Source: Spirochaetaceae bacterium | GTDB taxonomy: Bacteria > Spirochaetota > Spirochaetia > DSM-27196 > SLST01 | DNA: 64,000 nucleotides | Reading direction: 5' to 3' | Assembly: GCA_007118855.1 (NCBI GenBank) | Contig: SKQU01000026.1 | Span: forward strand, 4,505 to 68,504 | In this document: positions 12,920 to 43,263 of the stretch, one piece after another | How positions within the stretch are numbered: the first letter of the stretch is position 1 | How the letters are laid out: the number at the start of each line of letters is the position of its first letter | Notes under the pieces: model-generated | Seen by the model: only the letters and a program-made list of their open reading frames with translations | Told to the model about the DNA's origin: nothing | Databases searched by the model: none | Position numbers and translations under genes: made by a program

Positions 12920-12950
12920 AGAGAGGCCGCGCGAGTCGCTCCTGAGCGTC

Positions 12951-16079
<3,129 letters not shown>

Positions 16080-16083
<4 letters not shown>

Positions 16084-16112: not shown

Positions 16113-16161
16113 GGACAACTCTGCCCTTGACGCGCCTTCGCGCCGCACGCATCATCCTCGC

Positions 16162-19592: not shown

Positions 19593-19635
19593 GCGCACCT
19601 CCAGTCCTCAGAGCGTAGCGGGGCCGCGGAACCTC

Positions 19636-19686
19636 GTCAATCGACGCGCGCTGTCAGTCGACGCCCGCTGTCAGTCGACGCGCGAG
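19636..19686. repeat. Three tandem copies of a 17-bp unit (GTCA[A/G]TCGACGC[G/C]CG..) spanning the rhaA stop codon
   Basis: Copies at 19636-19652, 19653-19669 and 19670-19686. Copies 2 and 3 carry the palindromic GTCGAC core; copy 1 has ATCGAC. Confidence 0.85.
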
Positions 19687-20936: not shown

Positions 20937-20980
20937 GGTTCCTCCGCCTCCATTGTGCCGCAGATCTCGGTTTCCGTGAA

Positions 20981-21009
20981 TGGACAGATCGGTGCCGAGA
21001 ATGTAGATT
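20981..21009 (+). promoter_or_regulatory. Candidate promoter TGGACA-N17-TAGATT ending 6 nt before the AraC-family ATG
   Basis: Exact 17-nt spacer and no SD in the 6-nt gap, in the rhaA/araC divergent region. Confidence 0.4.
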
Positions 21010-21015
21010 TCGGTC

Positions 21016-26747: not shown

Positions 26748-27557
26748 ATGGAGCTTGGGTTGCAGAGTTACTGTCTGAGAGGCATCAAGGACAACGAAGC
26801 GGTAGCGAAGACGGTCAAGGAGTGCGGGTTGCGCAGGATCGAAGTGTGTGCCGTGCACACAGCCTTCGACGACCCGGCAGGTTTCGAGGCGCTCGCCGGG
26901 CAATACCGGGCAGGCGGAGTGCCGATCGTCAGCATAGGCGTCAACAGGATCGGCACCGATCGAAGGGCCGCCACGACGCTCTTCGAGTGCGCGAAGGCTG
27001 CAGGGCTCGAGCGGATGAGCGTCGACTTCCCGCTGGAAGGGATCGACGATGCACTTGCGATCGCCGATGAGCTCAGCGAACGGTACGGCGTCAGGCTCGG
27101 CATCCACAACCACGGCGGGCGTCACTGGCTCGGCTCGGTCACCGCGCTTCGATGGGTCTTCGGCAGGACGAGCGAGCGGGTAGGGCTGAGCCTCGACACG
27201 GCGTGGGCGGTAGACTCGCGGGAGGATCCCGTGGCCATGGTGCGGGAGTTCGGAGACAGGCTGCACCTCGTGCACATCAAGGACTTCGTGTTCGCCCGTG
27301 ACCGCACCCCGGAAGACGTCGTCGTGGGTACCGGCACGCTCGATCTGGCGGCGCTCGACCGCGCGATGGCGGAGGTCGGGTTCGCCGGAGAGGCGATTCT
27401 CGAGTACGAGGGCGACGTCGAAAACCCCGTTCCGGCGCTGCGCGACTGCGTGAAGGCGGTCGGCCGGACCATGGAGCTCGTGACGGTACCGGTGGACCGA
27501 CCAGCGACAGAGTCTCTTCATCGATCTACGAGTCGGCTCGAACCGGAGCAGCCGTGA
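26748..27557 (+). CDS. Sugar phosphate isomerase/epimerase (xylose-isomerase-like TIM barrel)
   Basis: 269 aa. RLGIHNH, SLDTAW and LVHIKD strings typical of the AP-endonuclease-2 / xylose-isomerase-like fold. SD GAGGAGGA. Confidence 0.8.
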   Translation: MELGLQSYCLRGIKDNEAVAKTVKECGLRRIEVCAVHTAFDDPAGFEALAGQYRAGGVPIVSIGVNRIGTDRRAATTLFECAKAAGLERMSVDFPLEGIDDALAIADELSERYGVRLGIHNHGGRHWLGSVTALRWVFGRTSERVGLSLDTAWAVDSREDPVAMVREFGDRLHLVHIKDFVFARDRTPEDVVVGTGTLDLAALDRAMAEVGFAGEAILEYEGDVENPVPALRDCVKAVGRTMELVTVPVDRPATESLHRSTSRLEPEQP

Positions 27558-27575
27558 AGCCTGACTGGTCGTTTC

Positions 27576-27604
27576 TCGACTAGCCATAGCGCAACCGGTA
27601 TACT
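27576..27604 (+). promoter_or_regulatory. Candidate promoter TCGACT-N17-TATACT ending 6 nt before ATG 27611
   Basis: Exact 17-nt spacer and no SD in the gap. Confidence 0.4.
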
Positions 27605-27610
27605 GCACCA

Positions 27611-28219
27611 ATGAGCGATTCCAGGGGCGACTCTCTCGAGCGGCTGCGGGAACACGTGATTGATCAGCTGTCCACCGGCTACTCGCGCGACTTCCTGAGC
27701 GAGGAGGAGTTCGAGCAGCGGCTGGAGACCGCAACGGCCGCGGACCGGCACGCCGAGCTGCGAAGCCTGATCGTCGATCTTCCACCGGCCGGCTCTCCGA
27801 ACCCGCCTGCCGTCTCCGGCGAGTCGGCGGCTGCCGACGGTCGCCTCGAGCGGTTCGCGATTAACCGGGCTGAGGTCTCAGCCGAGTCTTCGCTCATCGC
27901 GGTGTTCTCCGGAGCCGATCGCAAGGGCGTGTGGGAACCCCCGAGGACGTTGAACGTCGTGGCGATCTTCGGGGGCAGCGACATAGATCTGCGGGAGGCG
28001 CGCTTTCCTCCCGGCGGGCTCACGATCAAGGTGGTCGCGATGTTCGGAGGCGTGGACATCATCGTTTCCGAGGGGACCAATGTCGAGGTGAGCGGGGCCG
28101 GGATCTTCGGCGCCTTCGAAGCGGGGAAACGGAAGTCACCGGCGATCCCCGGGGCGCCCACCGTGAAGGTGGAGGGCGCCGCGATCTTCGGTGGCGTGGA
28201 AGTCAGATTCAAGGGGTGA
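27611..28219 (+). CDS. DUF1707-like N-terminus plus LiaF-like C-terminal domain protein
   Basis: 202 aa. N-terminal RLREHVIDQL..GYSRDFLSEEEFEQRLETATAADRHAELRSLIVDLP pattern. C-terminal repetitive beta-strand motif (AIFGGSDIDL, AMFGGVDIIV, AIFGGVEV). Confidence 0.6.
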   Translation: MSDSRGDSLERLREHVIDQLSTGYSRDFLSEEEFEQRLETATAADRHAELRSLIVDLPPAGSPNPPAVSGESAAADGRLERFAINRAEVSAESSLIAVFSGADRKGVWEPPRTLNVVAIFGGSDIDLREARFPPGGLTIKVVAMFGGVDIIVSEGTNVEVSGAGIFGAFEAGKRKSPAIPGAPTVKVEGAAIFGGVEVRFKG

Positions 28220-28221
28220 GC

Positions 28222-29304
28222 ATGAGTGACGGGATGAAGTACGCGCCTCGTGCGCAGGGACGACGGGTCGTTGAAGCCGGCGAGTTCCGGGTCGGTGTCG
28301 CAGGGCTTGACCACGGACACATCGTCGGCATGTGCCACGGACTCCAGGATGCCGGCGCGCAGATCGTCGCGGTCCACGATCCCGACTCGTCGAAAATGGA
28401 GGGGTTTCGCGGCGAGTTTCCGGATGTGGAACTCGTCGCTGAAGAGCGGGCGCTTCTCGAGCGCGAGGATCTGCACCTTGTGGCCTCCGCCGCGGTCCCA
28501 GCGGACCGCGGGCCGCTCGGGCTGCGCGTCATGGATCACGGGAAACACTACTTCTCGGACAAGGCGCCGTTTACGACGCTCGATCAGCTCGAGGCGGCGA
28601 GGGCGAAGGTGCGCGAGACCGGGCTCATCTGGGCGGTCTGCTACAGCGAGCGAGTCCAGAGCGAGAGCGGTGTCTTCGCCTCGCAGCTCATAGAGCAGGG
28701 AGCGATCGGGACCGTGCTTCAGGTAATCGGGCTCGGGCCGCACCGGCTCGGTGCCTCCGCCCGCCCCGAGTGGTTCTTCAGGAAGGAGCGATACGGCGGG
28801 ATCCTGGTTGACATCGGCAGCCACCAGGCAGAGCAGTTTCTCTACTATGCCGGTGCGAACGATGCCAAGGTTCTGCACAGCAAGGTGGCGAACTACAACC
28901 ATCCGGAATACCCGGAGCTCGAGGATTTCGGCGATGCAACGCTCGTCGCGGACAACGGCGTGACCAACTACTTTCGCGTCGACTGGTTTACGCCGGACGG
29001 TCTTTCGACCTGGGGAGACGGACGGACCTTCATCATGGGAACCGAGGGGTACCTGGAGCTTCGCAAGTACACCGACGTGGCCCGGGACGCCGGCGGAGAC
29101 CAGGTCTACCTCGTGAACGGCGAGGGGGAGAAGCACTTCTCGGTCGCCGGGAGCGTGGGGTTTCCCTACTTCGGGGACCTGATCCTCGATTGCCTGAACG
29201 GGAGTGAGAACGCGATGAGGCAGGAGCATACGTTCAAGGCCGCAGAGCTGTCGCTCATCGCGCAGCGCGACGCGATCACGCTCAACACCTCCCCCGTCGG
29301 ATGA
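28222..29304 (+). CDS. Gfo/Idh/MocA-family oxidoreductase
   Basis: 360 aa from the ATG 3 nt after the upstream stop. N-terminal Rossmann RVGVAGLDHGH and family-typical layout. The track ORF has a spurious 5' extension. Confidence 0.8.
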   Translation: MSDGMKYAPRAQGRRVVEAGEFRVGVAGLDHGHIVGMCHGLQDAGAQIVAVHDPDSSKMEGFRGEFPDVELVAEERALLEREDLHLVASAAVPADRGPLGLRVMDHGKHYFSDKAPFTTLDQLEAARAKVRETGLIWAVCYSERVQSESGVFASQLIEQGAIGTVLQVIGLGPHRLGASARPEWFFRKERYGGILVDIGSHQAEQFLYYAGANDAKVLHSKVANYNHPEYPELEDFGDATLVADNGVTNYFRVDWFTPDGLSTWGDGRTFIMGTEGYLELRKYTDVARDAGGDQVYLVNGEGEKHFSVAGSVGFPYFGDLILDCLNGSENAMRQEHTFKAAELSLIAQRDAITLNTSPVG

Positions 29305-29305
29305 G

Positions 29306-30817
29306 ATGAGCCGACCCGAGCACGCAATCACCAACGGTCCGCGCTGCTCCGGGGTGCTGCTCCACCCGACTTCGCTTCCGGGCGCACTCGGTATCGGGAG
29401 CCTGGGACCTGAAGCCGGCGCCTTCGTCGACTTTCTCGCCCGCGCCGGACAGCGTCTCTGGCAGGTCTGCCCGCTCGGTCCGACCGGCTACGGTGACTCA
29501 CCGTACCAGTGTTTCAGCGCCTTCGCCGGGAACCCGCTCCTGATCGGAATCGAGCCGCTGGTCGCAGAGGGTCTGCTCGAGGAGGCCGATCTCCGGAACG
29601 CCCCTGAGAACCGCGATCGCGTGGACTACGGCGAGGTGATCCCCTGGAAGACCGATCTGCTGTGCCGGGCATACGAGCGGTTCCGCCGTGATGCGTCCTC
29701 GGCCATGCGCGCGCGGCTGCGCCAGTTTTCGCACCTGCACGCGCACTGGCTCGACGACTACGCCGTGTTCATGGCGCTGAAGGATGCCTACGAGGGCAGG
29801 CCCTGGACCGAGTGGGACGCGAAGCATCGCGACCGGGACCCTGAGGCGCTCGGTGCGTTCGTCTCCTCGCACGAGGAACGCATAGGGCGAAGCACCTTCC
29901 TCCAGTGGCTCTTTCACACGCAGTGGTACGCGCTGCGCGCCCAGGCCGGCTCGTACGGGATCCGCATCATAGGGGATCTACCTATCTTCGTCGCGCACGA
30001 CAGCGCCGACGTCTGGGCGCATCGCGAGCTGTTCAAGCTCGACGCGAAGGGAAGGCCGTCGGTGATTGCCGGGGTTCCTCCCGATTACTTCAGCGCGACC
30101 GGGCAACTGTGGGGTAACCCGATCTACGACTGGGAGGTTCACGAGCGCAGCGGGTTCGCCTGGTGGGTCGACGTGCTTGCGAGCAAGTTCTCCCTCTACG
30201 ACTACGTGCGCATCGACCACTTCCGCGGGTTCAGCGCGTACTGGTCGGTGCCCGCCGGAGAGTCGACCGCCATGAGAGGCTCCTGGGTGCCCTCGCCCGG
30301 GCGTACACTGTTCGAGACCGTCGAGCGTCGACTCGGCCGCCTGCCGGTGATCGCCGAAGACCTCGGGGTGATCACGCCGGACGTGGTCGAGCTCATCGAG
30401 CACTTCGGGTTCGCCCGGATGAAGGTCCTGCAGTTCGCCTTTCAGGCGCACGAGCGCAACGAGTACCTGCCGTACCGCTACGAGAGGAACTCGATCGTGT
30501 ACACGGGCACCCACGACAACGACACGGTGGTCGGGTGGCTTTCTGAAGCGGAGACGGCCGACCGTGCCTTCGCGCTGGGATACCTTGGGAGCGACGGAAA
30601 CGACCCGGCATGGGACTTCATCAGGGCGGCGCTCGCCTCGCCGGCTCACTTCGCCGTGGTTCCGGCACAGGACCTCCTTGGGCAGGGCAGCGAGGCGCGG
30701 ATGAACACCCCGGGCACCACGGGCGGCAACTGGCAGTACAGACTCCGGCCGCACGATCTCACCGCCGACGTCGCGGATCGCCTGCGATCGCTCTGCGATC
30801 TGTACGGCAGGCTGTAG
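29306..30817 (+). CDS. malQ: 4-alpha-glucanotransferase (amylomaltase, GH77)
   Basis: 503 aa. GVLLHPTSLPG, YGDSPYQCFSAFAGNPLLI, IDHFRGF, PVIAEDLGVITPDV and YTGTHDNDT. Confidence 0.92.
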   Translation: MSRPEHAITNGPRCSGVLLHPTSLPGALGIGSLGPEAGAFVDFLARAGQRLWQVCPLGPTGYGDSPYQCFSAFAGNPLLIGIEPLVAEGLLEEADLRNAPENRDRVDYGEVIPWKTDLLCRAYERFRRDASSAMRARLRQFSHLHAHWLDDYAVFMALKDAYEGRPWTEWDAKHRDRDPEALGAFVSSHEERIGRSTFLQWLFHTQWYALRAQAGSYGIRIIGDLPIFVAHDSADVWAHRELFKLDAKGRPSVIAGVPPDYFSATGQLWGNPIYDWEVHERSGFAWWVDVLASKFSLYDYVRIDHFRGFSAYWSVPAGESTAMRGSWVPSPGRTLFETVERRLGRLPVIAEDLGVITPDVVELIEHFGFARMKVLQFAFQAHERNEYLPYRYERNSIVYTGTHDNDTVVGWLSEAETADRAFALGYLGSDGNDPAWDFIRAALASPAHFAVVPAQDLLGQGSEARMNTPGTTGGNWQYRLRPHDLTADVADRLRSLCDLYGRL

Positions 30818-30891
30818 CCCGGCCGGCGGCGCCCGCAGCACCACGGTCCGTGACAGTCTTCACCGCTTGCGCCATCTGCGGCTTCGTGCTA

Positions 30892-30907
30892 TTGTTGCAT
30901 GCAACAA
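30892..30907. promoter_or_regulatory. Perfect 16-bp palindrome TTGTTGCATGCAACAA overlapping the lacI-family start region
   Basis: Seen directly. It overlaps a candidate TTGCGC-N17-TATTGT promoter (30867-30895) and both candidate ATGs (30899, 30908). Confidence 0.5.
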
Positions 30908-31897
30908 ATGGAAGCACGAGCCGGCCGGGTGACCGTCTATGATGTCGCGAAGGCGGCGGGAACGTCCGCCAGCACCGTATCCCGGGTTCTGAACGGTTCC
31001 GCGCTGATCGCGCCCGAGACCAGGGCCACCGTCCTCGACGCCGCCGACGAGCTTGGGTATCGCCAGCGCAGAGTACGCCGCTCCGCATCGCGGTCGGTGC
31101 TGAACGTCGTGGTGTTTCTTCCTCGCGCGGCCGAGGCGCATGCCCATCTCTTCTACGACGCGGCCGCGCTTTTCGCCGGGATCCAGAAGGGGCTCGAGCC
31201 CGTGCGGACGCATACGATCGCGGCGCTTGTGGGGTCGACTTCACCGTTCGAGGGCAAGAAGCTCGGTGACATCGACGGGTGCATCTTCGCCTTCTGCGAC
31301 CCGCCCGGGAAGGCGCGTCGGCTCCTCATCGAGCGCGGAATTCCGGCCGTGGTGATCAACCGGCTCGACGAGCAGTTCGCCTGCGTGGTCAACGACCACG
31401 AGGCGGGCATGGCCGCGATCGCCGCACTCGTTGCGGCAAGACGCCCGCAGGCGCGGCCGGCCTGGGTAACGGTTGCGACGGCGAACCCGGTCGCAGGGTA
31501 CCGGCGTCGGGCCCTGCTCGGCTGCGAAGCTCTGCGGATGGCCGATGCCGATTGTTTCGAGTTCGGCTCGATCGCACAAATCGGGACCGAATCGGTGGCC
31601 TCGATGCTCGAGGCCGGGTACGACACGCTGATCTGCGTGAACGACCTCGTCGCGATCGCGGCCTACGAGCGGCTGTCGCTGCTCGGTGTCCGGGTGCCTC
31701 ACGGGGTGGGTCTCACCGGCTACGATGCGGCCCCGGTGCGGGAGCTCCTCTCTCAGGAGATCGTGACCGTCGATCTTGCCGGCGAGGCGATGGGGCGGCA
31801 GGCGGCGGAGCAGCTCGTGGAAGCGATACTGCGAAGGGAGCTGCCGCGGGGACGGACCATGGTAGCCGGCGGCCTGATTGCCGGGTCGACGCTGTAG
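30899..31897 (+). CDS. LacI/GalR-family transcriptional regulator
   Basis: 332 aa. N-terminal HTH VTVYDVAKAAGTSASTVSRVLNG plus a periplasmic-binding-protein-like core. The start could instead be ATG 30908. Confidence 0.88.
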   Translation: MQQMEARAGRVTVYDVAKAAGTSASTVSRVLNGSALIAPETRATVLDAADELGYRQRRVRRSASRSVLNVVVFLPRAAEAHAHLFYDAAALFAGIQKGLEPVRTHTIAALVGSTSPFEGKKLGDIDGCIFAFCDPPGKARRLLIERGIPAVVINRLDEQFACVVNDHEAGMAAIAALVAARRPQARPAWVTVATANPVAGYRRRALLGCEALRMADADCFEFGSIAQIGTESVASMLEAGYDTLICVNDLVAIAAYERLSLLGVRVPHGVGLTGYDAAPVRELLSQEIVTVDLAGEAMGRQAAEQLVEAILRRELPRGRTMVAGGLIAGSTL

Positions 31898-31908
31898 AGG
31901 AGGAGGAT

Positions 31909-32766
31909 ATGGGAGCGATTCTGGTGACCGGGGCAAGCCGTGGCATTGGACGCGGGATTGCGCTCGAGCTTGCACGCGCGGGAAAGGTCGTCGCGGTTCA
32001 CTACAACGGCAATCGCGAGGCGGCGCTTGCCACCGCGAAGGAGTGTGGACCGGGTCCCGACGGCGCCCGGTGCGCGGTCTTTCAGGCCGACATCTCGAAA
32101 GCGGACGACCGGGCGCGCCTCGTGAACGAGGTGGTCGATACCTATGGCTCGATCGACGGCCTCGTGAACAATGCCGGTATCGCGCCGCGCAGGCGGGACG
32201 ACATCGTCGAGGCCGATGAAGAGATCTTCAACGAGGTCATCCAGGTCAACCTCACCGGTCCCTATTTCCTGACGCAGCTCGTCGCGCGCCGGTGGCTCGA
32301 GCACGATGCGCCCGCGACGGGGAATGCGCCCGCGACGGGGAATGCGCCCGCGACGGAAGGGGCCCCCGCGGCGAGTCCACCCGCGGACGGTGGACCGTCC
32401 GCACCGCAGCCGCGACGCATCGTCTTCGTCACGTCGATCAGCGCGACGATGGTCTCCACCTCGCGCGGCGAGTACTGTGTGAGCAAGGCGGGTCTCGCGA
32501 TGGGGGCCGCGCTCTTCGCCGCGCGTCTTGCGCCCGAAGGCATCCTCGTCTTCGAAGTACGACCCGGCATCACGAAGACCGACATGACCGCCGGCGTCAC
32601 CGGGAAGTACGACCGGCTCATCGCCGACGGGCTCGTGCCGCAGCGGCGGTGGGGGCTCCCCGAGGATACCGGCAAGGTGGTCCGCTCGATCATGGACGGC
32701 CACCTCGACTTCTCGCCCGGTTCGGTTATCTACACCGACGGCGGATTGAACATTCCAAGATTGTAG
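31909..32766 (+). CDS. Short-chain dehydrogenase/reductase (KduD/FabG-like) with a low-complexity insertion
   Basis: 285 aa from the ATG after AGGAGGAGGA. TGASRGIGRGIA cofactor motif, NNAG, and YCVSK catalytic Tyr/Lys. The track ORF has a spurious 5' extension. Confidence 0.85.
   Translation: MGAILVTGASRGIGRGIALELARAGKVVAVHYNGNREAALATAKECGPGPDGARCAVFQADISKADDRARLVNEVVDTYGSIDGLVNNAGIAPRRRDDIVEADEEIFNEVIQVNLTGPYFLTQLVARRWLEHDAPATGNAPATGNAPATEGAPAASPPADGGPSAPQPRRIVFVTSISATMVSTSRGEYCVSKAGLAMGAALFAARLAPEGILVFEVRPGITKTDMTAGVTGKYDRLIADGLVPQRRWGLPEDTGKVVRSIMDGHLDFSPGSVIYTDGGLNIPRL
32308..32360 (+). repeat. In-frame 18-bp tandem repeat (gcgcccgcgacggggaat x2 plus a partial third), encoding APATGN-APATGN-APATEG
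   Basis: Two identical copies at 32308-32325 and 32326-32343, and a diverged third at 32344-32360, inside the SDR gene. Confidence 0.9.
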
Positions 32767-32775
32767 GAGGAGAGG

Positions 32776-34191
32776 ATGATCGCGATCGACACGAAGGTTA
32801 CGGCGGCTGATCTGGTCCCGGGCCTCGAATCGCTCTCTGCCGTGGCGCGCAGATGCGTCGATCTGCTGCGCGAACGGTGGAACGAGGCGGACGGCACGCC
32901 GGTCTTCACGGAGGCGGGCAGGTACACCAGTCGCGGCTGGACCGAGTGGACGCAGGGGTTCCAGTACGGCATCGCGCTCCTGCTCTTCGAGACGACCGGA
33001 AACGAAGAGTATCTGGAGTACGGCCGACGCGAAACGGTGAAGAAGATGGCCCCCCACCTCACGCACATTGGGGTTCACGACCACGGCTTCAACAATGTGA
33101 GCACCTATGGGAATCTCCTGCGCATGATGAGCGAAGGCACGATCCCGCAGGACGAGTGGCAGCGGGAGTTCTACGAGCTCGCGCTCAAGCTCTCGGGAGC
33201 CGTTCAGGCGAGCCGGTGGACCGCGCTACCCGACGGTCTCGGGTACGTGTGCAGCTTCAACGGCCGGCACAGTCTCTTCTCGGACACGATTCGCAGCATG
33301 CGCTCGCTCGCGCTCGCGCACCAGCTCGGGCACGTCCTCATGGGCGAGCAGGATGAGCGGATATCGCTGCTCGGACGCCTGCTCGCGCACGCGGAGACGA
33401 CCGGCCGCTACAACGTCTACTTCGGCGAGGGACGCGATGCCTACGACGTTCGGGGCCGTGTCGTGCACGAGAGCATCTTCAACGTCGACTCCGGCGCCTA
33501 CCGCTGTCCGTCGACGCAGCAGGGCTACTCGCCGTTCTCGACCTGGACCCGCGGGCTCGCGTGGATCCTCGCCGGCTATCCGGAGGAGCTCGAGTGGCTC
33601 GAGACCCTGTCCGACGACGAGGTGCGCGCGTGCGGGTTTCCCGCAGGCGGCGTTGCGGAGATCAGCGCCCGTTACCTCGAGATCGCGCGGGCGACGGCCG
33701 ACTTCTTCATCGAACAGAGCCCGACCGACGGTATACCCTACTGGGACACCGGCGCGCCGGGGCTCTCGCGCATGGGAGACTACCGCGACCGTCCCGCCGA
33801 TCCGTACAACGAGCACGAACCGGTGGACAGTTCGGCGGCCGCGATCGGCGCGCAGGGGTTGCTGCGGCTCGGAGGCTATCTTGCCCGGAATGCCGGCTCG
33901 AAGGCCGACGAGCAGGCCGCGGCCCGCTATACGCAGGCCGGCCTCACGGTGTCCCGGACGCTGCTCGGAGAGCCGTACCTCTCGCTTGCCGCCGGGCACG
34001 AGGGCATCCTCCTGCACTCGGTCTATCACCGTCCGAACGGCTGGGACTACGTGCCTCCGGGACAGACGGTGCCCAACGGCGAGTCGGCGATGTGGGGCGA
34101 CTACCACCTGATGGAGCTCGGACTCATGGTGAAGCGGCTTGCCGAGGGCAAGGCGCCGCAGCGCTTCTTCGACATCAGGAGGCCGGCATGA
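32776..34191 (+). CDS. GH88-family unsaturated glucuronyl hydrolase-like protein
   Basis: 471 aa. WTEWTQGFQYG, VHDHGFNN, STWTRGLAWILAGY, YWDTGAP and AMWGDYHLMEL align by eye with Bacillus GL1 UGL (DWTDGFWSG, HHDIGF, STWTRGQAWGIYGF, TIWGDYYYLE). Confidence 0.75.
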   Translation: MIAIDTKVTAADLVPGLESLSAVARRCVDLLRERWNEADGTPVFTEAGRYTSRGWTEWTQGFQYGIALLLFETTGNEEYLEYGRRETVKKMAPHLTHIGVHDHGFNNVSTYGNLLRMMSEGTIPQDEWQREFYELALKLSGAVQASRWTALPDGLGYVCSFNGRHSLFSDTIRSMRSLALAHQLGHVLMGEQDERISLLGRLLAHAETTGRYNVYFGEGRDAYDVRGRVVHESIFNVDSGAYRCPSTQQGYSPFSTWTRGLAWILAGYPEELEWLETLSDDEVRACGFPAGGVAEISARYLEIARATADFFIEQSPTDGIPYWDTGAPGLSRMGDYRDRPADPYNEHEPVDSSAAAIGAQGLLRLGGYLARNAGSKADEQAAARYTQAGLTVSRTLLGEPYLSLAAGHEGILLHSVYHRPNGWDYVPPGQTVPNGESAMWGDYHLMELGLMVKRLAEGKAPQRFFDIRRPA

Positions 34192-35051
34192 GCGCGATGA
34201 ACCGTACGACCGACGATCTCAGGGATCGCGGCAGAACTCCGCCGGATCAAAGCCGACTGTGTATTCACACCGCGACGACGCGTCCGCTGCCGCTCGAGGC
34301 GGCGGTCGACGAGTACGTCCGCGCGGGTGTCCGCGGTATCACCGTCTGGCGCGACGCGCTCGCCGGCCGCAGCGCTCGGGCCGCCGGTGATCGGATTCGC
34401 AGGGCCGGCCTCGAAGTGGTCTCGCTCTGCCGCGGAGGGTTCTTCGTGAATGCCGACGAGGAAGAGCGTATCGTCGCGATCGAGGAGAACCGTTCCGCCG
34501 TCCGGGAGGCAGCCGAGCTCGGGGCGCCGCTGGTCGTGCTCGTCTGCGGGGCCGATCCGGCGGTGCCGCTGCCGCTCGCGCGCGAGCAGATCCGGACGGG
34601 CATCGAGGCGGTACTCCCGCTCGCCTCGCAGCTCGGCGTCAAGCTTGCGATCGAACCGCTGCACCCCATGTACGCCGACACGCGCAGCGCGATCACGGAC
34701 CTCGCGACCGCGAATCGGATGTGCGAGGAGATCGACTCGCCGGCGCTCGGCGTCGCGGTGGACGTCTACCACCTGTGGTTCGACCCCTCGCTCGAGACCG
34801 AGATCGAGCGCGCAGGTGAGCGCGTCCTCGCCTTTCACGTCTGCGACTGGAGGACCCCCACGCGCGACTTGCTCACCGACCGGGGGCTCATGGGCGAGGG
34901 GTGCATCGACATTCCCGCGATTCGCGGCTGGGTGGAAGCGGCCGGATTCGACGGGTTCATCGAAGTCGAGATCTTCTCGACCGAGTACTGGGCCCTCGAG
35001 CAGCGCAGCTATATTGAACGAATCGTCGGCGCCTACGAAGCGCACGTATAA
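34188..35051 (+). CDS. Sugar phosphate isomerase/epimerase (xylose-isomerase-like TIM barrel)
   Basis: 287 aa. ATGA overlap with the GH88 gene. LAIEPLHP and VDVYHLW strings. The track ORF has a spurious 5' extension in this frame. Confidence 0.8.
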   Translation: MSAMNRTTDDLRDRGRTPPDQSRLCIHTATTRPLPLEAAVDEYVRAGVRGITVWRDALAGRSARAAGDRIRRAGLEVVSLCRGGFFVNADEEERIVAIEENRSAVREAAELGAPLVVLVCGADPAVPLPLAREQIRTGIEAVLPLASQLGVKLAIEPLHPMYADTRSAITDLATANRMCEEIDSPALGVAVDVYHLWFDPSLETEIERAGERVLAFHVCDWRTPTRDLLTDRGLMGEGCIDIPAIRGWVEAAGFDGFIEVEIFSTEYWALEQRSYIERIVGAYEAHV

Positions 35052-35071
35052 GAAGCAGCAGAGGAGGAACA

Positions 35072-36214
35072 ATGGACCGCCATATTGGAGTTATCATGAA
35101 CGGGGTGACCGGGCGCATGGGAACGAACCAGCACCTGGTGCGAAGCATCCTCGCGATCCGCGCGCAGGGCGGAGTCCCCGCGAAGAACGGTGACCGGATC
35201 ATCCCACAGCCCATACTCGTAGGCCGCAACGAGGCGAAGCTCGCGCGGCTGGCCGCCGCGCACGGCGTGGAACGCTATACGACCGACCTCGACGCGGCGC
35301 TCGGCGACGATCGCGCGCCGGTCTACTTCGACTCGGCGACGACCGAACAGCGGGTCCACGGCGTGGGGAAGGCGATCGACGCGGGCAAGTCGATCTACTG
35401 CGAGAAGCCCACGGCGACGACGCTCGACGAGGCGATCGCCCTCGCACGGAAGGCCCGGCTCGCCGGCGTGAAGAACGGCGTCGTCCAGGACAAGCTGTGG
35501 CTGCCCGGGCTGCTGAAGCTGCGCTATCTCATCGAGACCGGGTTCTTCGGCAGAATCCTGAGCGTGCGCGGTGAGTTCGGCTACTGGGTCTTCGACGGCT
35601 TCCACCAGCCGACGCAGCGACCGAGCTGGAACTACCGCAAGGAGGACGGCGGCGGCATCATGATCGACATGTTCTGCCACTGGCGGTACGTGATCGACAA
35701 CCTGTTCGGTCCGGTACGCCGTCTCTCGGCGATCGGTGCGACGCATGTTCCCGAACGGGTCGACGAGCAGGGCCGAACGTACACCTGTACGGCCGACGAT
35801 GCAGCCTACGGGACATTCGAGCTCGAGGACGGGGTCATCTGCCACTTCAACAGCTCCTGGGCGGTGCGCGTGCGGCGCGACGACCTGCTCACGCTGCAGG
35901 TCGACGGCACGAACGGCACCGCGGTCGCGGGGCTCACCCAGTGCGTGGTGCAGCCCGACGCGACGACTCCGAAGCCGGTGTGGAACCCCGACCTCGAGAG
36001 CCCGATCGACTACTTCGACGACTGGAAGCTCGTGCCCACCCGGGACCCCGCGGACAACGCGTTCAAGGCGCAATGGGAGCTCTTCCTGCGCCACGTCGTC
36101 GACGACGAGCCGTTCCCCTGGGATCTCATGGAGGGCGCGAAGGGCGTGCAGCTCGCGGAGCTCGGGCTTCAGTCGTGGCGCGAGCGTCGCTGGGTCGACG
36201 TCGAGCCGCTGTGA
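35072..36214 (+). CDS. Gfo/Idh/MocA-family oxidoreductase
   Basis: 380 aa. N-terminal IGVIMNGVTGRMG Rossmann motif and an EKP motif (IYCEKPTA). SD GAGGAGGA. Confidence 0.8.
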   Translation: MDRHIGVIMNGVTGRMGTNQHLVRSILAIRAQGGVPAKNGDRIIPQPILVGRNEAKLARLAAAHGVERYTTDLDAALGDDRAPVYFDSATTEQRVHGVGKAIDAGKSIYCEKPTATTLDEAIALARKARLAGVKNGVVQDKLWLPGLLKLRYLIETGFFGRILSVRGEFGYWVFDGFHQPTQRPSWNYRKEDGGGIMIDMFCHWRYVIDNLFGPVRRLSAIGATHVPERVDEQGRTYTCTADDAAYGTFELEDGVICHFNSSWAVRVRRDDLLTLQVDGTNGTAVAGLTQCVVQPDATTPKPVWNPDLESPIDYFDDWKLVPTRDPADNAFKAQWELFLRHVVDDEPFPWDLMEGAKGVQLAELGLQSWRERRWVDVEPL

Positions 36215-36221
36215 CCGGGCT

Positions 36222-36250
36222 TTGGCACGTCGAGGTTGAGCTGGTATAGT
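36222..36250 (+). promoter_or_regulatory. Candidate promoter TTGGCA-N17-TATAGT upstream of kdgK
   Basis: Exact 17-nt spacer, 18 nt upstream of ATG 36269, with a GGAGGG SD in between. Confidence 0.45.
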
Positions 36251-36268
36251 GGATGAAACGGAGGGCTT

Positions 36269-37366
36269 ATGGATTCGCTTTCGATTCGACCGGCTGACGA
36301 GTGCCTGTGGGACCAGGTGTCGCTCGGCGAGATCATGCTGCGGCTCGATCCGGGAGAGGGGAGAGTCAAGACCGCACGCACGTTCACGGTGTGGGAAGGC
36401 GGCGGCGAGTACAATGTCGCGCGGGGGCTTCGGCGCTGCTTCGGGATGCGCACGGCCGTGGTGACGGCGATTCCGCGTACCGACGTCGGCTACCTGCTCG
36501 AGGACCTCATCCTGCAGGGCGGGGTCGACATGCGTCACGTGAAGTGGGTCGACTACGACGGGATCGGGCGGGAGAACCGCGTGGGACTGAACTTCACCGA
36601 ACGCGGGTTCGGCGTCCGGGGAGCGCTCGGGGTCTCCGATCGCGCGCACTCGGCCGCGAGTGCCCTGCGGAAAGGCGACATCGACTGGCAGCGCATCTTC
36701 GGGAAGGAGGGCGCCCGCTGGTTCCACTGCGGCGGCATCTTCGCGGGACTCAGCGAGACGTGCCCCGATGTCGTCATCGAGGCGATGCAGGCGGCGCACG
36801 AGCATGGGACGATCGTCAGCTACGACCTCAACTACCGTGCGTCCCTGTGGAAGAACAACGGCGGGAAGAAACGGGCGCAGGAAGTCAACCGCGAGATTGC
36901 GAAGTACGTGGACGTGATGATCGGAAACGAAGAGGATTTCACCGCGTCGCTCGGTTTCGAGGTAGAGGGTGTGGACAAGTCGCTCACGGGGCTCGACCCG
37001 GCGAAGTTCACCTCGATGATCAAGCGGGTCGTCGAGGAGTTCCCCAACTTCCGGGCGGTGGCGACGACGCTGCGGGACGTGCATTCAGCGACCTCCAACG
37101 GCTGGAGCGCGGTGCTCTCCTATGACGGGTTTCACCAGGCGACCAATCGCGAGCGGCTCGAGATCATGGACCGCGTCGGCGGCGGGGACAGCTTCGCGAG
37201 CGGGCTCATCTACGGCTTCCTCTGCGGGAAGTCGCCGCAGGAATGCGTCGAGTACGGCGCGGCGCACGGAGCGCTCGCGATGACCACTCCCGGGGACACG
37301 TCGATGGCCTCGCTCGCCGAAGTGGAGAAACTCGTCGGCGGCGGCAGCGCGAGGGTTGAGCGATGA
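36269..37366 (+). CDS. kdgK: 2-dehydro-3-deoxygluconokinase (PfkB family)
   Basis: 365 aa. PfkB signature GGGDSFASGLIYG near the C-terminus and GGGEYNVA near the N-terminus. Followed by eda with an ATGA overlap. Confidence 0.8.
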   Translation: MDSLSIRPADECLWDQVSLGEIMLRLDPGEGRVKTARTFTVWEGGGEYNVARGLRRCFGMRTAVVTAIPRTDVGYLLEDLILQGGVDMRHVKWVDYDGIGRENRVGLNFTERGFGVRGALGVSDRAHSAASALRKGDIDWQRIFGKEGARWFHCGGIFAGLSETCPDVVIEAMQAAHEHGTIVSYDLNYRASLWKNNGGKKRAQEVNREIAKYVDVMIGNEEDFTASLGFEVEGVDKSLTGLDPAKFTSMIKRVVEEFPNFRAVATTLRDVHSATSNGWSAVLSYDGFHQATNRERLEIMDRVGGGDSFASGLIYGFLCGKSPQECVEYGAAHGALAMTTPGDTSMASLAEVEKLVGGGSARVER

Positions 37367-38151
37367 GCGGTTCAGCAGACAGGGCGGATCTCGATCGACG
37401 ACTGAACGAGTACGGCGTCGTCCCGGTCATCGTGCTCAGCGACCCGGCGCAGGCCGAACCGCTCGGCGAGGCGCTTCTTGCCGGAGGGCTGCCGGTTGCC
37501 GAGATTACCTTTCGCTCGGACGCGGCGCTCGAGGGAATCCGGACGATGGCGAAGACCTACCCGCAGATGCTGCTCGGTGCCGGGACGGTGCTCTCGGTCG
37601 ACCAGGCGAAAGCGGCGGCGGACGCGGGTGCGCGGTTCATCGTGACGCCCGGATTCAACACCGGCGTGGTCGACCACTGCATCGATGCGGGCCTGCCGGT
37701 CTATCCCGGTATCAGCGGGACCGGCGAGATAGAGCTGGCGATCAGCCGCGGGCTGGAGGTGGTGAAGTTCTTCCCCGCGGAGGCGCTCGGCGGGGTCGCG
37801 ATGCTCAAGGCGCTCTCCGGTCCCTATAGGAGCCTTCGCTTCATGCCGACCGGCGGGATCAGCCTTGCGAATCTCCACGACTACCTTTCGCTCCCGCAGG
37901 TGCTCGCCTGCGGCGGAAGCTGGCTCGTCTCGAGCGACGCGCTCGCGGCCGGCGACTACGCGAAGATCGTGAGTACGGTCCGCACGACGCTGCTCGAGAT
38001 CTACGGCTGCCTGGTCTCTGACGTCGGGGTCGAGGTGCGTACTCGCTACCCACGGCGCACAAAGGCCTATCTCGAGCGCGAGGAGGTGGGAACGAGGGAT
38101 ACCGACGCCGGTATCACCATTGCCGCCACGGACGTCGTGCTTCGCGGATGA
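37363..38151 (+). CDS. eda: KDPG / KHG aldolase with a ~45-aa C-terminal extension
   Basis: VVPVIV, AEITFRS, GAGTVL, FIVTPG, VKFFPAE and RFMPTGGI (Schiff-base Lys region). 262 aa versus the ~210 typical for the family. Confidence 0.85.
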   Translation: MSGSADRADLDRRLNEYGVVPVIVLSDPAQAEPLGEALLAGGLPVAEITFRSDAALEGIRTMAKTYPQMLLGAGTVLSVDQAKAAADAGARFIVTPGFNTGVVDHCIDAGLPVYPGISGTGEIELAISRGLEVVKFFPAEALGGVAMLKALSGPYRSLRFMPTGGISLANLHDYLSLPQVLACGGSWLVSSDALAAGDYAKIVSTVRTTLLEIYGCLVSDVGVEVRTRYPRRTKAYLEREEVGTRDTDAGITIAATDVVLRG

Positions 38152-39434
38152 CCTTTCCAGACTTCCATCACGAGGCCGACTACCTCTCGTTTCTCGAGGC
38201 CCGTTCGGCCCTCCCGGCCGGGTTTCGCGCCGCCGTCTCGCGGATCGCGTTCACGCCGCAGGAGCGCCCCACCCTCGAGCCGTACCGGATGAACCTCGCA
38301 CTCCTCTGCGCCGACGAGCCGGTTGAGAGCTTTGGCGGCGTATTCACGAGGAACGCCTTCCCGGGGGCGCCGGTGATTCTCGGTCGTGAGCGTCTCGCCG
38401 AGCCTGTGGTCCAGGGAGTGCTCGTCAACAACAAGATCGCCAATGTGCGGGCGGCGACCGGGCTCGAGGACGCGCGTCGCCTCACCGCGGCGCTCGGGGA
38501 ACGCCTCGGGCTGCCGGCCGAGCGTCTGTTCAGCGTGTCCACCGGTATCATCGGGTGGACGCTTCCGGTCGCCGAGATAGAAGGTGCGATCCCGTCGCTC
38601 TGCGACGGGCTGCACCGCGGGAGCGCGCTCGACGTGGCGCAGGCGATCATGACGACCGACGGCTTCCCCAAGGTCCGACGCGTAGAGATCGGCGGCGGCT
38701 CGATTCTGGGGATCGTCAAGGGCGCCGGGATGATCGAGCCGAACATGGCGACGATGCTTGCCTTCGTGCTGACCGACGTGGCGATTCGGCGGGAAGCGGC
38801 GCGCCGTGCCCTGGCGCAGGCCGTGCGGGAATCCTTCAACGCGATCACGGTCGACGGGGACATGAGCACGAGCGACATGGCGCTGCTCCTCTCCTCCGGA
38901 CGGGTCGCGGGCGTCGCGGAGGACGACTTCGTGCAGGCACTTGCCCGGCTTTGTGGACTTCTCGCGCAGGATGTGGTACGTAACGGGGAAGGCGCAGGGC
39001 ACGTGCTGCAGCTGACGGTTTCCGGCCTGCAGACCGACGAGCTTGCCCGGGGAGTCGCCAAGGCGGTGGCGAACAGCCCCCTGGTGAAGACCGCGGTCTA
39101 CGGGAACGATCCGAACGTTGGGAGGCTGCTGTCGGCCGTGGGGGACTATCTCGGGTCGGCCGGGCTGTCCGTTGATCCTCGGCTGATCACGATTCGCGTG
39201 GGTGAGGAAACCGTGTTCGCCGAAGGAGCCTTCAGGATAGACCGGGAGAAGGAAGTCCGGCTCTCCGACTACCTGAAGTCGGCGGCGATGAATCCGCGGG
39301 TGACCGGGTATCCGCAGCATCAGCGGAGCGTTGAGATCGCCATTGACTGCGGGATGGGCCGAGCGGACGCGAGAGTGTGGGGCTCCGACCTGTCGGACCA
39401 GTACGTGCACGAGAACGCGGATTACAGGACGTAG
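38148..39434 (+). CDS. argJ: Bifunctional ornithine acetyltransferase / N-acetylglutamate synthase
   Basis: 428 aa. GAGMIEPNMATMLAFVLTDV (autocleavage ATML site) and C-terminal ENADYRT. Confidence 0.9.
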   Translation: MTFPDFHHEADYLSFLEARSALPAGFRAAVSRIAFTPQERPTLEPYRMNLALLCADEPVESFGGVFTRNAFPGAPVILGRERLAEPVVQGVLVNNKIANVRAATGLEDARRLTAALGERLGLPAERLFSVSTGIIGWTLPVAEIEGAIPSLCDGLHRGSALDVAQAIMTTDGFPKVRRVEIGGGSILGIVKGAGMIEPNMATMLAFVLTDVAIRREAARRALAQAVRESFNAITVDGDMSTSDMALLLSSGRVAGVAEDDFVQALARLCGLLAQDVVRNGEGAGHVLQLTVSGLQTDELARGVAKAVANSPLVKTAVYGNDPNVGRLLSAVGDYLGSAGLSVDPRLITIRVGEETVFAEGAFRIDREKEVRLSDYLKSAAMNPRVTGYPQHQRSVEIAIDCGMGRADARVWGSDLSDQYVHENADYRT

Positions 39435-39442
39435 GACGAATC

Positions 39443-40447
39443 ATGAACAAAGGTACAACGACGACCTCGGCGGCCGGCCCGGAGTTCGCGGCAGAGGTGT
39501 CGCGCGCGCGCGACCTGATCGAGCGGTGCCGCCAGGAGATCGCGCGGGCGATCATCGGTCAGACCGGCATGGTCGACGGCATGCTCATGGGCATTCTCAC
39601 CGGAGGACACGTCCTGCTCGAGGGAGTGCCCGGGCTCGCGAAGACGCTCGCCATCACGAGTCTGGCGCGGGTGATGGACGCGAGCTTCAAACGAATCCAG
39701 TTCACGCCGGATCTGCTGCCGGCCGACCTGATCGGGACGATGGTGTATCGCCAGCAGACCGGCGAGTTCATGGCTCGCAAGGGGCCCATCTTCTCCAACA
39801 TCATCCTGGCCGACGAGGTGAACCGCGCACCGGCGAAGGTTCAGTCGGCAATGCTCGAGTCGATGCAGGAGCGGCAGGTCACGATCGGAGAGACGACCTT
39901 TCCGCTGCCCGCGCCGTTCTTCGTGCTCGCGACCCAGAACCCCATCGAGCAGGAAGGAACCTACCCGCTTCCGGAAGCACAGCTCGACCGGTTCATCATG
40001 AAACTCGCGGTTACCTACCCCTCTCCGGAGGAGGAGCTGCAGATCCTCAAGCGGGTGGGGGTGGAGCACGATCCCAGGCTCAAGACGATCCTGTTCGCTT
40101 CGGACGTCAAGCGGCTCCAGGAGACCGCGTCGAAGATCCAGGTCGACGACCGGATCCAGGAATACATCGTCGCCCTGGTGATGAGCTCACGCAAGCAGAA
40201 CGAGTCACGTTCGTTCCACCGGTACGTGGAGTTTGGAGCGTCGCCCCGCGCAACCATCTTCCTGTACCGCTGTGCCAAGGTCCGTGCGCTGTTCGACGGA
40301 CGACCGCACGTACTGCCCGACGATGTGAAGGCAGTGGCCCCCTCGGTGCTGCGCCACCGTATCGTGCCGTCGTACGAGGCGGAAGCCGAGCAGCTTACCT
40401 CCGATGACCTGGTCGGTCTGCTCCTGTCGACGGTGCCCGTTCCCTGA
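39443..40447 (+). CDS. moxR: MoxR-family AAA+ ATPase
   Basis: 334 aa from ATG 39443. Walker A region GHVLLEGVPGLAKT, RIQFTPDLLPADLIGT, and Walker B ILADEVNRA. Confidence 0.9.
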   Translation: MNKGTTTTSAAGPEFAAEVSRARDLIERCRQEIARAIIGQTGMVDGMLMGILTGGHVLLEGVPGLAKTLAITSLARVMDASFKRIQFTPDLLPADLIGTMVYRQQTGEFMARKGPIFSNIILADEVNRAPAKVQSAMLESMQERQVTIGETTFPLPAPFFVLATQNPIEQEGTYPLPEAQLDRFIMKLAVTYPSPEEELQILKRVGVEHDPRLKTILFASDVKRLQETASKIQVDDRIQEYIVALVMSSRKQNESRSFHRYVEFGASPRATIFLYRCAKVRALFDGRPHVLPDDVKAVAPSVLRHRIVPSYEAEAEQLTSDDLVGLLLSTVPVP

Positions 40448-40452
40448 GAAAT

Positions 40453-43251: not shown

Positions 43252-43263
43252 CGGGGAGGGGTT

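Follow-up and report, generated by a model that had tools for sequence, protein, structure and literature searches.

All polysaccharide lyases that act on pectin, alginate, glycosaminoglycans, ulvan, gellan or xanthan share unsaturated uronates as a product, and KduI-KduD, DhuI-DhuD or reductases of 4-deoxy-L-erythro-5-hexosulose-uronate (DEH) are assumed to account for the steps leading from these to 2-keto-3-deoxygluconate (KDG). The classical route consists of an unsaturated glucuronyl hydrolase (UGL) of family GH88 or a GH105 enzyme, followed by KduI, KduD, KdgK and Eda/KdgA, and the end pathway of alginate degradation combines a DEH reductase of the short-chain dehydrogenase/reductase (SDR) family with KdgK, Eda and the cupin KdgF. 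[quoted passage not shown] Here we describe an operon in a 64,000-nucleotide stretch of contig SKQU01000026.1 of a Spirochaetaceae bacterium (the whole stretch is called the window below), which resembles the classical route at both ends, having a first enzyme of GH88 fold and, as the last two, a KDG-type kinase and an aldolase of 2-keto-3-deoxy-6-phosphogluconate (KDPG), with an isomerase-like protein and an oxidoreductase in the middle, all in one operon. It differs from that route in that KduI is absent, the SDR is not KduD, and the partner of the isomerase-like gene is a Gfo/Idh/MocA oxidoreductase, not an SDR. The module recurs in many phyla, and the description that suits it best is that of a variant, widespread but uncharacterised, of the pathway from unsaturated uronates to KDG.

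We read the operon as a cytoplasmic route from a small 4,5-unsaturated uronide, or the free unsaturated uronate, through KDG to pyruvate and glyceraldehyde-3-phosphate; this is the leading interpretation, and we give it somewhat less than even credence. The original prediction for the locus had drawn the same line from unsaturated uronate through KDG and KDPG to pyruvate and glyceraldehyde-3-phosphate, and the locus still looks that way, with neither KduI nor DhuI. The genes concerned, all on the forward strand and assigned to families with Pfam and NCBIfam, are the following.

30891-30908, no strand: 18-bp near-perfect palindrome ATTGTTGCATGCAACAAa, candidate LacI operator, overlapping the LacI start codon
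30899-31897, + strand: LacI-family regulator, first gene of the operon (Pfam LacI and Peripla_BP_3)
31909-32766, + strand: FabG-like SDR of PRK12745 type, 285 aa (NCBIfam PRK12745)
32776-34191, + strand: GH88-like protein (GH88L), 471 aa (sub-threshold Pfam GH88, hhalign and Foldseek)
34188-35051, + strand: TIM2, xylose-isomerase-like TIM barrel (Pfam AP_endonuc_2, 134 bits)
35072-36214, + strand: Gfo2, Gfo/Idh/MocA oxidoreductase (Pfam, PDB 3OQB)
36269-37366, + strand: PfkB-family kinase, KDG-kinase-like (Pfam PfkB)
37363-38151, + strand: Eda, KDPG/2-keto-4-hydroxyglutarate aldolase (Pfam Aldolase, TIGR01182, PRK05718)
38148-39434, + strand: ArgJ (ornithine acetyltransferase), with a 4-nt ATGA overlap with the Eda stop

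About 60 window genes were checked with Pfam; NCBIfam was also used. The G+C content of the window is 57-69%, and a contig of the spirochaete metagenome-assembled genome GCA_003563635.1 is almost identical to it, with the same flanking genes; the accession series of that genome, PWUM01, is similar to those of soda-lake sediment genomes among the related loci. For comparison, window proteins were searched by tblastn against 86 loci that carry a relative of GH88L, covering about 10 kb on either side of each related gene; the neighbour counts given below are based on these searches, and single loci are cited by L numbers. Gaps between consecutive genes from LacI to ArgJ are 11, 9, -4, 20, 54, -4 and -4 nt, and these genes therefore form one tight operon. 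Judged by this layout, 30899-38151 is a single LacI-controlled operon, with ArgJ coupled to its last gene. The palindrome is the sole match in the window at three or fewer mismatches, where 0.01 would be expected by chance, and its core TGTTGCNNGCAACA (TGTTGC-NN-GCAACA) is found again just upstream of or at the LacI start in L003 (8190-8203) and L009 (1191-1204), and also in L030 (6998-7011). It is a candidate autoregulatory operator. Since there is a single operator site, the predicted LacI regulon within the window is this operon alone, without the preceding group orf685-TIM1-DUF1707-Gfo1-MalQ. LacI orthologues hold the equivalent position in L003, L009 and L010.

Several observations of the original prediction stood up to these scans. 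Pfam and NCBIfam agreed with its gene positions and with the interleaved DUF1707/LiaF and malQ genes; the ATGA it had reported between the GH88-like gene and TIM2 is real, the GH88L stop overlapping the TIM2 start at 34188-34191; and the regulon prediction it had proposed for the LacI regulator gave one operator in the window, at the LacI start, and only the operon from 30899 onward. It had also reported KduI, DhuI and transporters as missing here, and the Pfam scan of the roughly 60 window genes turned up neither a KduI nor an RpiB/LacAB domain and no sugar transporter. With Bacillus KduI as query, tblastn found nothing in the window, where the best E was 4.4, and nothing reached E<=1e-3 in the 86 loci; the absence of RpiB/DhuI covers the window genes by Pfam domain, the 86 loci not having been searched with a DhuI sequence. 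Compared with DhuI-DhuD, the window thus has no RpiB/LacAB-fold protein, the candidate isomerase is a xylose-isomerase-like TIM barrel or, in other lineages, a 152-aa monocupin, and the candidate reductase belongs to Gfo/Idh/MocA. The scan of the window found a single sugar isomerase of cupin fold, a D-lyxose isomerase family protein (57024-57833, - strand; Pfam Lyx_isomer, 309 bits). It is not KduI and is not linked to the operon: the distance is about 19 kb, and its neighbours are unrelated genes.

The Pfam GH88 model (PF07470) gave GH88L 23.3 bits over 47 residues only, below its cutoff of 26.6, and no NCBIfam model matched the protein. It matched the PDB UGL 1VD5 at E=6e-11, and hhalign comparison with six canonical GH88 sequences gave 99.9% probability and E=1e-35. 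Foldseek placed UGL structures (2FV0, 1VD5, 2ZZR and 3WIW; E from 8e-12 to 1e-10) as the best PDB matches of its AlphaFold2 model (predicted TM-score, pTM, 0.87), with target-normalised TM-scores of 0.76-0.80 and an (alpha/alpha)6-barrel fold. The homology of GH88L to GH88 is secure despite the sub-threshold Pfam score. With about 24% identity to characterised, canonical GH88 enzymes, GH88L differs from the first enzyme of the classical route in forming a separate clade, in its extra length of about 90 residues, in scoring below the Pfam threshold and in an arginine in the column of the general acid. More than 8000 clusters at 90% identity match it; the 120 best listed are 63-87% identical, and the phyla named among the listed matches are Spirochaetota, Verrucomicrobiota and Planctomycetota. 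Counting one genome per species, GH88L occurs in at least 599 species genomes of more than 12 phyla at about 60% identity, its carriers including Bacteroidota, Ignavibacteria, Acidobacteriota, Chloroflexota, Poribacteria, Latescibacterota, Actinomycetota, Proteobacteria and Methylacidiphilaceae, and for the best 80 loci, those that were kept, identity with the window protein is 57-87%. A library clustered at 50% identity contains essentially one full-length sequence of the family, along with fragments. By these identities, GH88L is a discrete and very conserved clade.

Much of the pocket of UGL can be traced in GH88L. Its D102, in an invariant HDHGF motif, aligns with UGL D88 (H-D88-I-G-F), and the invariant H231, Q249, W257, R259 and W263 (W257-x-R259-G-x-A-W263) align with UGL H193, Q211, W219, R221 and W225, which we take to be substrate-pocket or uronate-binding residues. 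The approximately 90 residues by which GH88L exceeds UGL lie largely in the loops 322-353 and 418-443, which are conserved in sequence and modelled with low confidence; this would be in keeping with a pocket that closes around a small substrate. By eye, the N-terminus has no signal-peptide-like features.

The module recurs as the same set of genes, in the same order and translationally coupled, in Spirochaetota, Verrucomicrobiota, Planctomycetota, Bacteroidota, Proteobacteria and others. An SDR gene lies within 4 kb of GH88L in 58 of the 86 loci, usually directly upstream, and the kinase and Eda are each found within that distance in 19. Six loci (L013, L022, L044, L034, L058 and L071) hold SDR, GH88L, Eda and PfkB without Gfo2 or TIM2. 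A variant at 52% identity is carried by the Chondrinema litorale plasmid NZ_CP111053.1 (L088, 10044-19017), from a red-alga isolate, where AraC, GH88L, TIM2, Gfo2, SDR, a sodium:solute symporter of PanF/PutP/MctP type and a Gfo protein with a twin-arginine translocation (TAT) signal, together with a further TIM barrel, are flanked by IS1595 transposases. The TAT-signal Gfo resembles the glycoside 3-dehydrogenase BT_2158 (104.8 bits, cutoff 750). A symporter of this type supports a small anionic substrate.

Gfo2 is present in 28 of the 86 loci, adjoining TIM2 in 17 and a 152-aa cupin in the other 11, never both and never neither. The cupin (L045, 11374-11832; L075, about 11380-11826) sits between GH88L and Gfo2, the slot that TIM2 fills elsewhere, is 68-93% identical across lineages and passes Pfam Cupin_2 and MannoseP_isomer (the C-terminal domain of mannose-6-phosphate isomerase; 30.8 bits, cutoff 23.6); both types occur within Methylacidiphilaceae (L043, L075). 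When plasmids were searched with it by tblastn, the matches were annotated only as 'cupin domain-containing protein'. Gfo2 itself is 61-92% identical across phyla and matches PDB 3OQB, deposited just as 'Oxidoreductase', at E=2e-162. TIM2 matches 3QC0/3JU2 (Sinorhizobium meliloti SMc04130; E=1e-66) and 7VPF (E=2e-62), and the part of 7VPF that aligns has the same sequence as a protein of Paenibacillus periandrae; the molecule names of these relatives are equally generic ('sugar isomerase', 'uncharacterized protein', 'Xylose isomerase'). All curated families fall far below their cutoffs. For TIM2 the best are the epimerase IolO (34.7 bits, cutoff 300), UlaE, FrlC and the isomerases OtnI and Hyi, the last of which carries out the same aldehyde-to-ketol chemistry beside a carboxylate; for Gfo2 they are levoglucosan dehydrogenase (LevoglcsnDh, 54.6 bits, cutoff 650) and IolG; the IolG scores obtained in the locus are 50.8 and 28.3 bits against a cutoff of 355.

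The pair is also found away from GH88L. Gfo2-DUF993-TIM2 triads, with an AraC or LacI regulator and without GH88L, occur in Paenibacillus, Sediminibacillus and Roseiflexaceae (L089, 7613-10840; L090, 6658-9816; L091, 6625-9822), their Gfo2 being 66-68% identical to that of the window, and DUF993 (PF06187) matches PDB 4DNH, deposited as 'Uncharacterized protein'. Gfo2-TIM2 is a portable two-enzyme unit. The structural-genomics proteins 3QC0/3JU2, 7VPF, 3OQB, 4DA9 and 4DNH include close homologues of TIM2, Gfo2 and the SDR, and those of TIM2 and Gfo2 show that the pair is widespread; in the genomes of these relatives it is joined to DUF993, not to GH88L and an SDR. A literature search returned no paper on 3QC0/3JU2, 7VPF, 3OQB, 4DA9, SMc04130 or DUF993, and none describing the module, with the limit that slash-containing names such as Gfo/Idh/MocA could not be searched.

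The SDR, whose true start is 31909, passed NCBIfam PRK12745 (258.7 bits, cutoff 250) and scored far lower against the KduD models TIGR01832 (82.6 bits, cutoff 338.85) and PRK06935 (74.5 bits, cutoff 369). From these scores, it is not a KduD orthologue. It keeps the serine, the YxxxK motif and the TGxxxGIG motif, and its nearest PDB relative is 4DA9 (E=3e-52), deposited just as 'Short-chain dehydrogenase/reductase'. Within the gene, an 18-nt tandem repeat (32306-32356; 2.8 copies, 100% matches) keeps the frame and makes up much of a 20-aa low-complexity loop insert of GNAPAT type, which five aligned orthologues do not have. As in the alginate end pathway, an SDR here adjoins an enzyme that putatively releases a 4-deoxy-5-keto-uronate; the SDR-GH88L-kinase-Eda operons resemble the direct DEH-to-KDG route, and a small cupin occurs in some versions of the module. 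The differences are that this SDR is not a member of the known DEH-reductase family, a statement made without direct comparison, and that no gene of an alginate lyase family was seen in the window. A 2026 paper reports for the soda-lake verrucomicrobium Verruconatronum alginivorum that alginate induces a cytoplasmic operon which encodes GH88, a KdgF-like cupin, a regulator and KDPG aldolase (PMC13274419). The composition of that operon resembles the module, any orthology being putative.

At the end of the operon, the aldolase is a bona fide Eda, matching Pfam Aldolase (228 bits) and passing both TIGR01182 (242.7 bits, cutoff 156.05) and PRK05718 (257.7 bits, cutoff 241). The kinase scores 82.8 bits with Pfam PfkB, and its best NCBIfam match is the kinase half of a KDPG-aldolase/kinase fusion (296 bits, cutoff 700); across loci the PfkB kinases fall into two ranges of identity, 64-93% and 28-52%. 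It is best called KDG-kinase-like and is linked to Eda, its specificity for KDG being putative. Where the original prediction had named a GH88 hydrolase, a KduD/FabG-like SDR, kdgK and eda, only the last therefore stands unaltered, by both curated models: GH88 homology is borne out by hhalign (99.9%) and by the UGL matches of Foldseek with the Pfam score staying below threshold, the SDR is FabG-like (PRK12745) and not KduD (82.6 against 338.85 bits), and the kinase is of the PfkB family and below every curated KDG-kinase cutoff.

From the observed gene order and coupling, homology, fold, conservation, co-occurrence and displacement of TIM2 by the cupin, we infer what the substrate is, what each enzyme catalyses and in which order the steps run, as follows. 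GH88L would hydrate the C4=C5 enol ether to give a 4-deoxy-5-keto-uronate, either DHU (also abbreviated DKI; threo) or DEH (erythro). TIM2, or in other lineages the 152-aa cupin, would be a ketol isomerase that turns DHU into 3-deoxy-D-glycero-2,5-hexodiulosonate in the reaction of KduI and DhuI, and Gfo2 would reduce this product to KDG, the step of KduD and DhuD. On a second branch the SDR would reduce the GH88L product directly, from DEH to KDG, in the manner of the alginate DEH reductases; alternatively, the SDR may be the KduD-like reductase and Gfo2 may have another role. The PfkB kinase and Eda would complete the route.

A KDG-type kinase and a bona fide Eda at the end fix the product as a 2-keto-3-deoxy-hexonate. 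An isomerase role is suggested for TIM2 because a cupin matching an isomerase model replaces it in a mutually exclusive manner, KduI itself being a cupin; because it is strictly paired with an oxidoreductase, as KduI is with KduD and DhuI with DhuD; because its nearest curated relatives (IolO, OtnI, Hyi) are keto-sugar-acid epimerases or ketol isomerases; and because no KduI was present in any locus examined. The direct action of the SDR on the GH88L product is suggested by the SDR-GH88L-Eda-PfkB loci without Gfo2 and TIM2. The original prediction had suggested that its two TIM/Gfo pairs supply a third type of DHU isomerase; for TIM2 and Gfo2 the pairing in 28 of 28 loci and the cupin displacement lend this indirect comparative support, which does not extend to TIM1 and Gfo1 upstream.

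A number of points weigh against this interpretation. The functions of all families are predictions from comparison. Both an SDR and Gfo2 are present where the classical route uses one oxidoreductase, which calls for the two-branch explanation given above. Since the data comprise 64 kb here and about 10 kb on each side in the relatives, KduI or DhuI may be encoded elsewhere. The kinase stays below every curated KDG-kinase cutoff (KDG_KDGal_kin_Halo, 140 against 440 bits; DhDoxglucKinKdgK, 28.8 against 400). In the hhalign alignment with six sequences, the column of the UGL general acid D149 (canonical IID motif) is occupied in GH88L by an invariant arginine, R173, so that the catalytic machinery may differ from that of canonical GH88; an invariant D170 stands three residues before it, directly after strand 166-168 and before helix 171-183 of the model, a placement that fits the strand-Asp-helix pattern of the canonical acid motif in the secondary structure of the model; D170 may be the acid in a shifted position, or the chemistry may be altered. 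The occurrence of Gfo2-TIM2 with DUF993 and without GH88L in Firmicutes and Chloroflexi means that the substrate of the pair need not stem from a GH88-type reaction. The module is also found where uronate degradation is not known, as in the methanotrophic Methylacidiphilum, and often neither a lyase nor a transporter gene was found near it with a longest-ORF caller, which undercounts neighbours in high-GC loci.

A more far-reaching version is possible, though we consider it doubtful: GH88L, a PRK12745-type SDR and (TIM2 or cupin)-Gfo2 would together constitute an undescribed 4-deoxy-5-keto-uronate pathway present in at least 599 species genomes, in which the TIM barrel and the monocupin would be the third and fourth inventions of a DHU ketol isomerase, Gfo would replace KduD/DhuD, and GH88L would use a re-wired Asp170/Arg173 site on a small, defined substrate. 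If true, it would give functions to the generically named structures 3QC0, 3JU2, 7VPF, 3OQB and 4DA9, and perhaps 4DNH. 

The phyla with the module include Planctomycetota, Verrucomicrobiota, Spirochaetota and Poribacteria, which are of importance for glycan turnover in soils, sediments and oceans, and the presence of the module in at least 599 species genomes of more than 12 phyla, with no KduI in any locus examined, suggests that a sizeable share of environmental uronate catabolism proceeds via unassayed enzymes. Pathway-reconstruction tools would then report the route as incomplete or mis-annotate it; at present the SDR matches a '3-ketoacyl-ACP reductase' model, the TIM barrel is named 'sugar phosphate isomerase' by NCBI and the hydrolase 'unsaturated chondroitin disaccharide hydrolase' by JGI.

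Among the rival explanations, the one that survives best, although we still regard it as unlikely, takes GH88L not as a glycosidase but as an enzyme dedicated to hydrating an unsaturated monosaccharide acid in free form or opening its ring, similar in function to KdgF, the module then serving for salvage of one small metabolite and not of oligosaccharide ends. Its extreme conservation (about 60% identity across phyla, one full-length cluster at 50%), the conserved extra loops that could close the pocket, the arginine in the canonical acid column, the presence of the module in small-genome methanotrophs (L043, L075) and the monocarboxylate-type symporter of Chondrinema are all in keeping with such a role, as is the lack of a consistent lyase or oligosaccharide transporter nearby, as far as the undercounting ORF caller allows. 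Against this, canonical GH88 enzymes act on glycosides, and in the window a gene for a lyase-fold protein precedes GH88L.

An improbable alternative, already raised in the original prediction, is an oxidise-then-eliminate route, in which Gfo2 would oxidise a hydroxyl group of a glycoside or anhydro-sugar, TIM2 would catalyse beta-elimination as LgdB and DgpB/C do, GH88L would hydrate the resulting enol ether and the SDR would re-reduce the keto group. TIM-barrel/Gfo pairs are the known logic of 3-keto-glycoside pathways, and LgdA/LgdB (levoglucosan) and DgpA/B/C (C-glycosides) likewise have a Gfo/Idh/MocA protein beside a xylose-isomerase-like TIM barrel. Enol-ether hydration is the chemistry of GH88, the best curated matches of Gfo2 are levoglucosan dehydrogenase and IolG (far below cutoff), the Chondrinema locus has its BT_2158-like TAT-signal Gfo (104.8 bits, cutoff 750) and an extra TIM barrel, and weak PDB matches of TIM1 include 8BVK and 8TCD/8TCS. 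The comparison with models of the LgdA/DgpA type nevertheless gave Gfo2 54.6 and Gfo1 25.1 bits against a cutoff of 650, none of the curated LgdB or DgpB/C lyase models matched TIM1 or TIM2, and the families nearest to TIM2 are epimerases and isomerases, not lyases. In 11 of 28 loci a cupin takes the place of TIM2, no cupin being known to us as a 3-keto-glycoside lyase, and some operons have SDR, GH88L, kinase and Eda but neither Gfo2 nor TIM2. Oxidation and elimination leave both of these facts unexplained and fit less well than the isomerase role. The route ends, moreover, in a KDG kinase and KDPG aldolase, which require a 2-keto-3-deoxy acid that a neutral 3-keto route does not make, and GH88L keeps the residues aligned to the uronate-binding residues of UGL.

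We think it just as improbable that Gfo2 and TIM2 or the cupin process the saturated sugar acid of the aglycone, as uronate reductase plus aldonate dehydratase or as uronate isomerase plus fructuronate reductase, so that both halves of a diuronide would yield KDG and the SDR alone would handle the GH88L product. This would account for the two oxidoreductases and for SDR and GH88L as an invariant core that forms complete operons with kinase and Eda; the Gfo2-TIM2 pair is independent of GH88L in the DUF993 triads, and UxuA, a mannonate dehydratase, is a member of the TIM-barrel superfamily to which TIM2 belongs. In the scan of curated models, however, TIM2 had no detectable similarity to UxuA or UxaC, and the aglycone is only putatively a uronate. 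We know of no precedent for a cupin as aldonate dehydratase, whereas a cupin ketol isomerase acting on exactly the DHU substrate has one in KduI. That the genes are neighbours by chance or shared regulation, with the TIM/Gfo pairs at work in an unrelated pathway, for instance the catabolism of inositol or rare sugars, is very improbable: such pairs are typical of inositol and rhizopine catabolism, weak IolE and IolG matches occur and MalQ and DUF1707 are plainly unrelated neighbours, but gene set, order and coupling recur across phyla and the IolG/IolE scores are 5- to 10-fold below their cutoffs. The inositol assignment, which the original prediction had named as refuting its reading, thus fared poorly, the IolG, IolE and IolO models all scoring far below cutoff for the TIM and Gfo proteins.

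Upstream of the operon lies a second run of genes on the same strand.

24740-26695, + strand: orf685, 651 aa (length by the near-identical P0241), no family match, lyase-like fold in the model
26748-27557, + strand: TIM1, xylose-isomerase-like TIM barrel (Pfam AP_endonuc_2, 64 bits)
27611-28219, + strand: DUF1707/LiaF_C protein (Pfam)
28222-29304, + strand: Gfo1, Gfo/Idh/MocA oxidoreductase (Pfam and PDB matches)
29306-30817, + strand: MalQ, 4-alpha-glucanotransferase (Pfam GH77, 595 bits)

The original prediction had treated TIM1-Gfo1 and TIM2-Gfo2 as two copies of a two-gene unit and had offered both as candidate steps of the pathway; the first reading does not hold, and the second is not supported for TIM1 and Gfo1. 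These two belong to other families than TIM2 and Gfo2: no significant similarity was found between TIM1 and TIM2, Gfo1 and Gfo2, which are of different subfamilies, share 32% identity over 107 residues, and the DUF1707 gene splits the first pair. The syntenic relative L003 has neither TIM1 nor orf685, TIM1 being found in L008 only; the group is headed by the lyase-fold protein, and the sole operator lies downstream of it. These genes are a separate, lineage-specific group, and TIM1 is outside the conserved module. The best PDB match of TIM1 is 3P6L (E=1e-14), its weak further matches are named generically as sugar phosphate isomerases or xylose-isomerase-like TIM barrels, and the IolE model gives it 34.7 bits against a cutoff of 290. 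Gfo1 matches 2P2S (E=6e-113) and 3U3X (E=2e-84), both named just as (putative) oxidoreductases, and scores 25.1 bits with the levoglucosan dehydrogenase model (cutoff 650); orthologues at 55-57% identity lie close to modules in three Verrucomicrobiota loci (L011, L062 and L087). The order DUF1707-Gfo1-MalQ is also found in the spirochaete loci L003 (DUF1707-Gfo1 at 4875-6610) and L008 (5835-7523). In the window a gap of only 2 nt separates the DUF1707/LiaF_C gene from Gfo1; it is odd to find a putative membrane-stress protein paired with a sugar oxidoreductase.

The first protein of this group, orf685, had no sequence match in Pfam, NCBIfam or PDB. It is 99% identical to P0241, encoded on the near-identical contig of GCA_003563635.1. 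Its AlphaFold2 model (predicted local distance difference test, pLDDT, 86) has an alpha-helical N-terminal and a beta-rich C-terminal region, and the top Foldseek matches are heparinase III 4FNV (E=3e-6), the PL15 exo-alginate lyase Atu3025, glycosaminoglycan lyases, PL8 and PL33. Eleven matches at E<=1e-3 are polysaccharide lyases and dermatan-sulfate epimerase 1, with probabilities of 0.96-1.00 and TM-scores of only 0.2-0.36. A sequence search gave 527 homologues, none with a named function, whose named organisms are Spirochaetota, Chloroflexota/Anaerolineae and one Promethearchaeota; elsewhere these homologues adjoin an MFS_2-type transporter and Gfo or TIM genes. From the model, orf685 may be a new lyase family, and as a lead only, it may be a cytoplasmic exo-lyase making the unsaturated substrate in this lineage. 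We rejected it as a general member of the module, because among the GH88L loci it is present only in the window and L008.

Further candidates were set aside. MalQ as a clue to a substrate derived from 1,5-anhydrofructose or glycogen was rejected, since the adjacency of MalQ to the module is confined to spirochaete loci (L003, L008 and L009). A role in salvage of 3-deoxy-D-manno-octulosonate (Kdo) from lipopolysaccharide was rejected, as the family is found in Micromonospora and Chloroflexota. Sugar genes at 11873-21927 encode a Zn-dependent alcohol dehydrogenase, a GH2 beta-galactosidase (1032 aa), RbsD/FucU, the L-rhamnose isomerase RhaA and an AraC regulator, and this cluster hints at the use of rhamnose- or galactose-containing glycans. 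RhaA/FucU and GH2 were not taken as parts of the pathway, RhaA being separated from it by three opposite-strand genes; the RhaA neighbourhood recurs in L003.

On the other side of the operon, ArgJ follows Eda also in L003 (15365-16651), and it has no obvious metabolic tie to the sugar-acid genes. Directly 3' of ArgJ, a run of forward-strand genes (39440-46894) encodes a MoxR ATPase, a DUF58 protein, two VWA-like proteins (assigned by synteny with L003) and a BatD/TPR protein; this run resembles a Bat aerotolerance operon and is kept in L003.

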